This document shows positions 24,422 through 49,968 of a DNA stretch of 64,000 bases, in pieces. The DNA is from Escherichia coli. GTDB lineage: Bacteria; Pseudomonadota; Gammaproteobacteria; Enterobacterales; Enterobacteriaceae. Each line of letters opens with the position of its first letter. Within the stretch, counting starts at the first letter, position 1. The DNA is taken from assembly GCF_003334785.1 (NCBI RefSeq), contig NZ_QOWV01000009.1; one strand, 5' to 3'. The notes below the pieces were generated by a model, which did no database searches, was not told the DNA's origin, and saw only the letters and a list, made by a program, of their open reading frames with translations. Made by a program: the position numbers and the translations under genes.

Positions 24422-24505
24422 TGTAGGCATGATAAGACGCGCCAGCGTCGCATCAGGCATCGAGAGCCAAATGCCAGATGCGGCGTGAACGCCTTATCTG
24501 GCCTA
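24422..24505. repeat. REP pair (BIME) between ybaL and gsk
   Basis: GTAGGCATGATAAGACGCGCCAGCGTCGCATCAGGCA ... GATGCGGCGTGAACGCCTTATCTGGCCTAC. Confidence 0.85.
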
Positions 24506-31926: not shown

Positions 31927-33858
31927 TCAAATGGGGCGGATACTTTCTTCATCCAGCTCCGCATCGAAGAACCGACGCAGGGTCTGAATATTATTATCCG
32001 CAATAATGGACTCGCGCGCCTGCGCAAGTTTTTCTTCGTATATCGCCTGACGCCACTCCAGCGGCGTACGCACCGCGGGATTATCATCTTCAACGATAGT
32101 CAGTTCAACCGTTGAACCTTTTAACATGCTCAACGCTTCAGCCAGTTTTTGCTGTGCACCGCGGTTGTTCAAATGCCGCTGAGAGGAGCGCAAATGCAGA
32201 CATACTGCGTTGTCGCTCTCCTCTTTCCAGGCATTTAACGCCACCTGTTCGACCAGTTTTGGTAGCGAAAGTTGGCTCACCTGTGCCGCCCACGGGTCGC
32301 GCTCAATGGCTTCTGCCGCTAGCTTCGCCGCCAGTTCCGGCGTTTTTTCATGTTCCAGCGCTTTTTTCAGCGCCTTCGGCGTGGCGACCACTTCTTTTTG
32401 CTGCATCACCGGAGTGGTCGCCTTCCAGCGATACGCTTCTTTTTTGGCTGGCGCTTTTTCCAGCGCCGATGGCACCGGACGCGCCTGAACGCGATCGGTG
32501 ACCGAAGCCAGTCTTTCCAGCGCAGCGTTATTCACCGGCCGCGCGCGGGTAGCGGCTGCCGGTTCACTCTTTTTTGCTTTGGTTGCTCCCTGCACGCGCT
32601 GCAACTGCTGGCGCGCCGCCAGCACCTGGCTGGTGGTTTCCGGGAGCGGTACAGTCGGTGCCTGCTGCGGCGCTGATTGCGGTTGCGGCGGCACCTGGGT
32701 TGGCGTCATTACTGCCGTTGGCGCGACGGGTGCAAAGGACTGTCGTGGCACTTCTGGCTCAGGCAGCGGCATACGCGGATGGAATGCCAGCGCGCGCAGC
32801 AGCGTCATCTCAACGCCCATGCGACGGTCCGGCGCATACGGTAATTCTTTGCGACCAATCAACAGCGTCTGATAGTAAAGCTGAATATCCGTCGGCGGTA
32901 TGGTGCGCGCCAGTTCACGCATCCGCAGCTCGATGGCGGCCATGTCGTTGCCAAGTGCAGCAGGCGAAAGTTGTACCATCGCAATACGATGCAACAGGCC
33001 GAGCATTTCCACCAGCAACGCTTCCCACTCGATACCACGGGCAGCGGCTTCATTAATCAGCGCCATTACGCGCTCGCCGTTGGCCTCGACCATCGCTTCA
33101 ACCAGCGACAGCGCCTGATCGTCGTCAAGCGTACCCAGCATCGCACTGACCGCCTGGGTTGAAACCTGGCCGTCACCGCTGGCAATCGCCTGGTCGGTCA
33201 GACTTAAGGCATCTCGCAGGCTGCCTTCAGCGGCGCGTGCCAGCAATTGCAGCGCCCGCGGCTCGTGAGCGATATGTTCTTCGTTGAGGATGTGCTCAAG
33301 CTGATGGCGAATTTGCTCGACATCCAGCGCCTTGAGATGAAATTGCAGACAGCGTGACAAAATCGTCACCGGCAATTTCTGTGGATCGGTCGTCGCCAGC
33401 AGAAACTTAACGTGCTCCGGCGGCTCTTCAAGGGTTTTTAACAGTGCGTTAAAGCTGTGGCGCGACAGCATATGCACTTCGTCGATCAGATAAACTTTGA
33501 AACGACCACGCGCCGGAGCGTACTGGACGTTATCCAGCAGGTCGCGGGTATCTTCAACTTTGGTGCGCGAGGCGGCGTCGATTTCAATCAGATCGACAAA
33601 GCGCCCCTGCTCGATTTCACGACAGTTATCGCACACGCCGCACGGCGTCGCGGTAATGCCGGTTTCGCAGTTTAGCCCCTTCGCCAGCAGTCGGGCGATA
33701 GAGGTTTTTCCGACGCCACGGGTGCCGGAAAAAAGATAAGCATGATGAATACGCCCTAACGACAAGCCGTTCGCCAGTGCGGTCAGCACATGTTCCTGGC
33801 CGACGACGTCAGCAAAGGTTTGTGGGCGCCATTTTCGGGCTAAGACCTGATAACTCAT
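31927..33858 (-). CDS. dnaX: DNA polymerase III subunits tau (full length) and gamma (via -1 frameshift)
   Basis: AAA+ Walker A GTRGVGKTS; internal A AAA AAG slippery site at codons 428-430. Confidence 0.95.
   Translation of the reverse strand: MSYQVLARKWRPQTFADVVGQEHVLTALANGLSLGRIHHAYLFSGTRGVGKTSIARLLAKGLNCETGITATPCGVCDNCREIEQGRFVDLIEIDAASRTKVEDTRDLLDNVQYAPARGRFKVYLIDEVHMLSRHSFNALLKTLEEPPEHVKFLLATTDPQKLPVTILSRCLQFHLKALDVEQIRHQLEHILNEEHIAHEPRALQLLARAAEGSLRDALSLTDQAIASGDGQVSTQAVSAMLGTLDDDQALSLVEAMVEANGERVMALINEAAARGIEWEALLVEMLGLLHRIAMVQLSPAALGNDMAAIELRMRELARTIPPTDIQLYYQTLLIGRKELPYAPDRRMGVEMTLLRALAFHPRMPLPEPEVPRQSFAPVAPTAVMTPTQVPPQPQSAPQQAPTVPLPETTSQVLAARQQLQRVQGATKAKKSEPAAATRARPVNNAALERLASVTDRVQARPVPSALEKAPAKKEAYRWKATTPVMQQKEVVATPKALKKALEHEKTPELAAKLAAEAIERDPWAAQVSQLSLPKLVEQVALNAWKEESDNAVCLHLRSSQRHLNNRGAQQKLAEALSMLKGSTVELTIVEDDNPAVRTPLEWRQAIYEEKLAQARESIIADNNIQTLRRFFDAELDEESIRPI
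32564..32575 (-). other. dnaX: Programmed -1 ribosomal frameshift site in dnaX (A AAA AAG; -1 frame reads AAA AAA GAG TGA)
   Basis: Minus strand GCA AAA AAG AGT GAA at codons 428-432, followed by the GC-rich stem CCGGCAGCCGCTACCCGCGCGCGGCCGG. Confidence 0.9.
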
Positions 33859-48924: not shown

Positions 48925-49278
48925 CTATTCGTCGATGATTGACTCGAATCCGCCATAGATCATTCGCTTGCCGTCAAACGGCATGGACTCGCCGAACTCT
49001 TTCATCCGTGGGTCCGACATCATCTTTTGATTAGCAGCGTCGCGGACCTCTTTTGAAGGGTATTCAATCCAGCTAAAGACAACCTCTTCATTCTCTTCCG
49101 CTTTCACCGCCATACGAAAATCGGTCACTTTGCCATCCGGTACATCGCTGGCCCAGCATTCGACAATACGAAGCGCGCCAAACTCTTTAAACAATGGCGC
49201 AGCCTTAGCGGCCATTTCCCGATAGGCATCCTTTTTATCGGCAGGAACGGCAACCACAAAACCATCAACATACTTCAT
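48925..49278 (-). CDS. ybaA: DUF1428-family protein
   Basis: 117-aa ORF in track. Confidence 0.85.
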   Translation of the reverse strand: MKYVDGFVVAVPADKKDAYREMAAKAAPLFKEFGALRIVECWASDVPDGKVTDFRMAVKAEENEEVVFSWIEYPSKEVRDAANQKMMSDPRMKEFGESMPFDGKRMIYGGFESIIDE

Positions 49279-49388
49279 CAGACATACCTCCGAAGCGTAC
49301 TGCGCAGCCAGACAATTCTTGCGACGTCAGTTGTGGTTAAAGTTTAGCCATGTTGGGATTTTTTGACGAAACGGTGGGAGGCAGAAAT

Positions 49389-49502
49389 GGGTGGGGGCCC
49401 TGCCAGCTACATCCCGGCACACGCGTCATCTGCCTTGGCTGCTTCCTTCCGGACCTGACCTGGTAAACAGAGTAGCGTTGCGGGAGAACCAACAGAGCCC
49501 CC
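49389..49502 (-). ncRNA. ffs: 4.5S RNA (signal recognition particle RNA)
   Basis: Minus strand reads GGGGGCTCTGTTGGTTCTCCCGCAACGCTACTCTGTTTACCAGGTCAGGTCCGGAAGGAAGCAGCCAAGGCAGATGACGCGTGTGCCGGGATGTAGCTGGCAGGGCCCCCACCC, 114 nt, matching the 4.5S RNA sequence as I recall it. Confidence 0.93.
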
Positions 49503-49578
49503 ATTGAGAGCGTTGAGAACCAACGCGCAGGCGCATTATCACTGCTGCCCCGGCTAATTGCAACCCATCGCGTGCCAG

Positions 49579-49968
49579 ATGCTGGTTTCTTGCGCAATGC
49601 GACTTCACTCGGGCGTTTTTCCAGATTATGCTGAAAAATTACCTCAGGAAGAAAAGATGGAAAAAGAAGATTCATTTCCCCAACGCGTCTGGCAAATCGT
49701 CGCCGCTATTCCCGAAGGCTATGTCACCACTTACGGTGATGTGGCGAAACTGGCGGGATCGCCCCGCGCCGCGCGCCAGGTGGGCGGTGTGTTAAAGCGT
49801 CTCCCTGAAGGCAGCACCTTACCCTGGCACCGGGTGGTTAATCGCCACGGCACAATTTCGCTAACCGGACCGGATTTACAGCGTCAGCGACAGGCATTAC
49901 TGGCAGAAGGTGTGATGGTATCGGGAAGCGGGCAAATCGACTTGCAGCGTTATCGCTGGAACTACTAA
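49579..49968 (+). CDS. atl: Alkyltransferase-like protein (MGMT-like DNA-binding domain without the active-site Cys)
   Basis: 129-aa product with PWHRVV in place of the PCHRV motif of O6-alkylguanine alkyltransferases; start at 49579. Confidence 0.9.
   Translation: MLVSCAMRLHSGVFPDYAEKLPQEEKMEKEDSFPQRVWQIVAAIPEGYVTTYGDVAKLAGSPRAARQVGGVLKRLPEGSTLPWHRVVNRHGTISLTGPDLQRQRQALLAEGVMVSGSGQIDLQRYRWNY

Follow-up and report, generated by a model that had tools for sequence, protein, structure and literature searches.

The spacer between ybaA and atl raises the question of whether the DNA between two annotated genes encodes small proteins, a structured RNA, or both. In the window, by which we mean the whole 64,000-nucleotide stretch of Escherichia coli DNA analysed here (contig NZ_QOWV01000009.1 of assembly GCF_003334785.1), two open reading frames of 112 and 60 amino acids lie on the minus strand in this region. 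[quoted passage not shown] Our analysis leads to the same answer, and we put at about 98% the probability that positions 49389 to 49502 of the minus strand are the ordinary ffs gene for 4.5S SRP RNA and that both open reading frames are chance frames giving rise to no protein. ffs is an essential textbook gene.

Read on the minus strand, the 114 nt begin and end as GGGGGCUCUGUUGG...GGGCCCCCACCC, and the complete sequence is GGGGGCUCUGUUGGUUCUCCCGCAACGCUACUCUGUUUACCAGGUCAGGUCCGGAAGGAAGCAGCCAAGGCAGAUGACGCGUGUGCCGGGAUGUAGCUGGCAGGGCCCCCACCC. When the whole window was searched against Rfam 15 with cmscan at gathering thresholds, the family RF00169 (Bacteria_small_SRP) was found at 49398..49494 on the minus strand, scoring 68.1 bits (gathering score 40), with an E-value of 5.5e-13 for the whole window and 3.9e-15 in a local search. 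The match spans model positions 1 to 97 of 97 and is not truncated. A search with the covariance model of the bacterial small SRP RNA was the check that the earlier note had proposed, and this full-length match well above the threshold, together with identity to the ffs gene of E. coli K-12, bears out its claim of a complete 114-nt 4.5S RNA on this strand. The published length of 4.5S RNA is likewise 114 nt (PMC9099147), and the exact ends of the RNA in the window are predicted from that length and from sharp boundaries of sequence conservation. The equivalent RefSeq feature, 49398..49494, takes in 97 of the 114 nt because it is derived from the Rfam model, and the mature-RNA coordinates given in the earlier note are the more complete of the two. 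A permissive Rfam search of 49250..49700 also returned a match to SNORD20, which at 19.8 bits against a threshold of 43 (E = 0.85) is a chance match. The features of the locus are collected in Table 1.

Table 1. Features in and around ffs, in window coordinates; RNA nt are counted from the mature 5' end
Feature	Position	Strand	Details
Mature 4.5S RNA (ffs)	49389..49502	-	One long hairpin with an unpaired 4-nt 3' tail, ACCC
ffs promoter	49535..49563	-	Predicted sigma-70 site: -35 TTGCAA (49563..49558); 17-nt spacer; -10 GATAAT (49540..49535); then a G+C-rich GCGCC discriminator
Putative 24-nt 5' precursor leader, GCGUUGGUUCUCAACGCUCUCAAU	49503..49526	-	Predicted small hairpin GCGUUG/CAACGC
Domain IV / helix 8 core, RNA nt 43-66, GGUCAGGUCCGGAAGGAAGCAGCC	49437..49460	-	Ffh M-domain binding region according to the literature; placed by the Rfam consensus alignment
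GGAA tetraloop	49447..49450	-	Inside the domain IV core
Distal-end region, RNA nt 81-90, GUGUGCCGGG	49413..49422	-	Includes G83, C86 and C87; partner strand around G13-U15
U-rich 3' flank, AUUUCU	49383..49388	-	Directly after the mature 3' end; probable transcript release site
112-aa ORF, ATG start	49337..49675	-	Covers the atl start (antisense), the ffs promoter, the leader, the RNA and 52 nt beyond; judged spurious
60-aa ORF, GTG start	49426..49608	-	Overlaps the 5' 77 nt of ffs and the promoter; judged spurious

Folded alone, the 114-mer forms one extended hairpin, leaving a tail of 4 nt at the 3' end, and has a minimum free energy of -57 kcal/mol (z = -3.15 relative to dinucleotide shuffles). 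Two alignments were built for comparison with related RNAs. The larger, of 108 SRP RNAs of unequal length from alpha-, beta- and gammaproteobacteria, Gram-positive bacteria and archaea, was too heterogeneous for the counting of base pairs, and for this reason a nearly gap-free alignment of 15 gammaproteobacterial sequences was used instead. RNAalifold predicted 38 pairs for this smaller alignment, 20 of them with compensatory double changes, and 96.3% of the cells in the predicted pairs hold standard pairs, compared with 83.5% in column shuffles. When the pairing partners were slid by one to three columns, only 34 to 51% of cells were paired, and none of 500 shuffles reached the observed value in any of five measures. 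Even the nearest relatives show clean double changes: Citrobacter werkmanii has G27A with C80U, and an Enterobacter species has U38C with A68G.

The apical part of the hairpin carries domain IV, with its GGAA tetraloop of the GNRA type, a short closing helix and the conserved internal-loop flanks GGUCAGG...AGCAGCC. The domain IV motif, scanned as the pattern GGTCAGGNCCGGAAGGNAGCAGCC in one genome per species, was found at 120 or more loci among the matches listed. These matches, to a 24-mer with two free positions, come from at least 120 bacterial and archaeal genomes, and include Proteobacteria, Firmicutes, Actinobacteria, Cyanobacteria and DPANN archaea. The core of domain IV is invariant in both alignments by construction, as this stretch served as the search pattern. 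Conservation at the other end of the hairpin lies outside the pattern: G83, G85, C86, C87, G88, G90 and G13 are invariant in the 15 gammaproteobacteria, and G14 and U15 are conserved in at least 90% of them. This conservation agrees with the part that the distal end is known to play. We take the nucleotides around G83, C86 and C87 to have individual roles in GTPase activation and to form the site of the Ffh-FtsY dimer.

A predicted promoter precedes the gene; no other sigma-70-like site was found in 49200..49750, an interval in which 0.3 such sites are expected by chance. In flanks aligned among E. coli, Citrobacter, Enterobacter and Providencia, both promoter hexamers and the GCGCC discriminator are conserved in the first three genera, and Providencia has the near variants TTGCTA, CATAAT and GCCACC. 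The leader is conserved in E. coli, Citrobacter and Enterobacter as well, and the RNA hardly varies among the four genera. A leader of 24 nt was reportedly described in the original papers of 1976-84. Among enterics, conservation extends from the -35 hexamer through the ATTT next to the mature 3' end (ACCC ATTT), and sequence similarity is gone within about 10 nt downstream of it. The sequence ACCCATTT is kept in enterics, and runs resembling CCATTT occur in Vibrio and Pseudomonas. Neither a terminator scan nor a fold of 49279..49526 revealed a canonical intrinsic terminator between ffs and ybaA, and we can therefore only infer how the 3' end of the transcript is formed. The scan did return a terminator-like match at 49511..49497 on the minus strand, which lies across the junction of the leader with the mature RNA and was set aside as a chance match. 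As a separate observation, ybaA lies on the same strand 110 nt downstream of ffs, and the stretch between them (49279..49388, minus strand) has no terminator-like structure.

The surroundings of the gene are those of the characterised locus. The flanking genes are ybaA (117 aa, 48925..49278, minus strand) and atl (plus strand), and the gene order in the window, pdeB (+), ybaA (-), ffs (-), the MGMT-family gene that is atl (+), ybaY (-), tesB (+) and amtB (-), is that of K-12. The 300-bp spacer at 49279..49578 is 100% identical to that of E. coli K-12 MG1655, C600, ATCC 8739 and many other strains, and several E. coli chromosomes match a 24-kb stretch around ffs at 100% identity; the window is therefore E. 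coli chromosomal DNA. Annotation of the spacer in the matching genomes consists of a single feature, "ffs: signal recognition particle sRNA small type". The earlier note had given the gap between ybaA and atl as 300 bp, a figure that holds with the older, 129-aa form of atl, starting at 49579, but that becomes 378 bp with the RefSeq/PGAP start at 49657.

The two rival starts of atl (49579..49968, plus strand) deserve a remark of their own. The ATG at 49657 gives the 103-aa protein of RefSeq/PGAP and the start at 49579 the older form, and the latter start is only 15 bp from the -35 hexamer of ffs. Between the two starts there is a 4-nt indel in Enterobacter and conservation is poor, and in the long form the match to the NCBIfam ogt domain begins at residue 32; these three observations favour the short form.

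Of 5426 complete E. coli genomes, 5425 contain exactly one copy of the 114-nt sequence, at an identity of 99% or more in 5421 of them. Among the matches listed for the 114 nt (30 records spread over the ranking), all 30 are annotated as ffs, and among the 42 E. coli records listed, ffs is the only feature annotated under the match. A few assemblies are odd. One of the 5426 assemblies labelled complete has no megablast match to ffs, two carry ffs on a record typed as a plasmid, and in 64 genomes the match extends over less than 80% of the 300-bp spacer, with the full RNA retained. Errors of assembly or labelling, or insertions in the spacer, are the likely causes.

Taken together, the sequence at 49389..49502 has the model score, the domain IV motif, the covarying hairpin, the identity and synteny with a characterised locus, and the distal site of its family. 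It is not merely a 4.5S-like sequence: it is the ffs gene, which is already known, and we found nothing of substance that speaks against this reading.

What, then, of the two open reading frames? Both are present in the mechanical list of open reading frames, and the longer spans the whole of the RNA, as the earlier note had said of the pair; the shorter covers only 49426..49502. No match to NCBIfam was found for either at E <= 0.1, and none to Pfam for the 112-aa ORF even at E <= 10. The exact sequence of the 60-aa ORF is absent from a collection of 15 billion proteins, and in Citrobacter and Enterobacter its frame is 29 codons long and has no start codon. RefSeq/PGAP calls no coding sequence over ffs in E. 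coli K-12. With neither family matches, nor conservation as open reading frames, nor a RefSeq coding sequence, we agree that the two should not be annotated as proteins.

The 112-aa ORF has nevertheless been treated as a gene before, and one might suppose that it is a real protein gene overlapping ffs, so that the locus would have a dual function. It has an ATG start, and an exact-sequence look-up found that the E. coli P12b genome was submitted with it as a "hypothetical protein" (AFG39350.1). At 90% identity it clusters with nearly identical entries, also of 112 aa, from E. coli S88 (CAR01799.1, UniRef B7MDX7), E. coli O25b:H4 (ANK05803.1) and Shigella dysenteriae (ESU77918.1). This cluster, however, has only nine members, of which four full-length and one truncated come from Escherichia or Shigella; the other four comprise two small contigs, one labelled S. 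aureus and one K. pneumoniae, and a pair of ENA entries. In E. albertii the ORF is cut short, ending after 51 aa, before the RNA is reached. Nor do the genome annotations speak for a protein, as no call is made in K-12 and the 42 E. coli records mentioned above show nothing but ffs under the match.

Of the remaining cluster members, the contig labelled Staphylococcus aureus is 551 bp long and that labelled Klebsiella pneumoniae 373 bp, and both are probably E. coli contamination. One of the ENA entries is a 217-aa sequence in which an N-terminus resembling methionyl-tRNA synthetase is fused to the ORF, with a variant form of the RNA-encoded stretch, which suggests a chimeric contig.

More weight might be given to the fact that the same frame is open over 117 aa in Citrobacter and 119 aa in Enterobacter. 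When reading frames were compared across genera, anchored on the RNA motif, the starts and the N- and C-terminal sequences of these frames proved unrelated to those of the E. coli ORF, and the only shared part was that read from the promoter, leader and RNA of ffs, …DNAPARW…LSMGALLVLPQ.YSV.QVRSGRKQP.QMT.VPGCSWQGPHPF. The frame is open in these two genera because the near-invariant DNA of the RNA and its promoter happens to have no stops there, and constraint on the RNA gene and its promoter fully explains the apparent conservation of a protein. In Providencia and more distant relatives the frame no longer stays open, being closed either upstream of the RNA or inside it; the stop codons of Pseudoalteromonas and Aliidiomarina fall inside the RNA gene. 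Moreover, where the RNA has changed it has done so by compensatory substitutions in pairs, which is the mark of RNA structure and not of codon usage. To produce an mRNA for the ORF, transcription would have to begin antisense to atl, at a point upstream of the ffs promoter. Both frames are chance open frames in a stop-poor sequence of 60% G+C, and on this evidence we regard a protein gene overlapping ffs as very improbable. We would say the same of a weaker version, in which the 112-aa frame or a shorter part of it would occasionally be translated from a longer transcript begun antisense to atl, making ffs a dual-function locus in Escherichia and Shigella only. Less probable still is that 49389..49502 is a non-functional or redundant copy of the SRP RNA gene, with the working gene elsewhere: we found nothing in support of this, each matching E. 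coli genome has exactly one copy and it is annotated as ffs, the copy in the window is 100% identical to the K-12 copy between ybaA and atl, and a full-length model match is accompanied by an intact, conserved promoter and leader.

The importance of the locus here is one of annotation hygiene only, and the window adds nothing new on the biology of the SRP. Tracks made of open reading frames alone, like some older genome submissions, place a "hypothetical protein" over ffs, and the false 112-aa protein has made its way into GenBank, into UniRef and into protein collections from metagenomes. Since the ORF has been deposited in a few GenBank genomes, the warning about annotation in the earlier note was apt. 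Masking structured RNAs ahead of the calling of open reading frames removes such false entries.

From established knowledge of 4.5S RNA, a pathway can be proposed for the product of this gene. Transcription would start some 24 nt upstream of where the mature RNA begins, and the long hairpin together with the conserved AUUU run may release the transcript. RNase P would then cut off the leader, and 3' exonucleases would trim the transcript to ...ACCC. Processing of the 4.5S precursor by RNase P has been described (PMC7049720, PMC12016569). The apical domain IV, with its internal loops and GGAA tetraloop, would bind the M domain of Ffh to form the SRP, which would capture ribosomes displaying hydrophobic signal-anchor sequences. 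The end of the hairpin with the tetraloop would promote docking of the receptor, FtsY, and the Ffh-FtsY GTPase dimer would then move to the distal end, around G83, C86 and C87, for GTP hydrolysis and handover of the cargo to SecYEG. [quoted passage not shown] Judged by its sequence, the window holds all of the RNA elements for SRP function, namely domain IV with its tetraloop and the distal site; ffh and ftsY lie outside the window.

The Rfam search of the window also returned RNA elements away from this locus. A perfect full-length match to the DnaX programmed -1 ribosomal frameshifting element (RF00382; 96.8 bits) at 32530..32594 on the minus strand is the known tau/gamma site of dnaX. The small RNA sroB (RF00368), which we take to be the RNA also named ChiX or MicM, is matched over its full length at 18663..18746 on the minus strand (82.1 bits), with a terminator hairpin and U-run. 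Three matches to naRNA4 (RF02564), at 17187..17264, 17288..17365 and 24426..24503, include two that are adjacent and score on both strands; the three look like palindromic repeat units of the REP/BIME type, not dedicated genes.

Three known systems place the RNA. The closest is the ffs gene of E. coli K-12 (4.5S RNA, b0455), which has the same spacer sequence, neighbours, gene order and strand relation; the only difference is one of map orientation, the window being the reverse of the standard K-12 map. With the family RF00169 (clan CL00003) the RNA shares the hairpin with conserved domain IV and the GGAA tetraloop, and differs from the 97-position model in extending 8 nt further at the 5' end and 9 nt further at the 3' end, parts of the 114-nt mature RNA that the model omits. 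More distantly, the domain IV motif GGUCAGGNCCGGAAGGNAGCAGCC is shared with the large bacterial SRP RNA of the Bacillus type and with eukaryotic and archaeal 7S RNA, and the domain IV pattern scan matched Bacillus, Paenibacillus and DPANN archaeal contigs. The Bacillus-type scRNA is about 270 nt long, whereas the E. coli RNA does without the Alu domain and the extra helices and consists of the helix 5/8 hairpin only.
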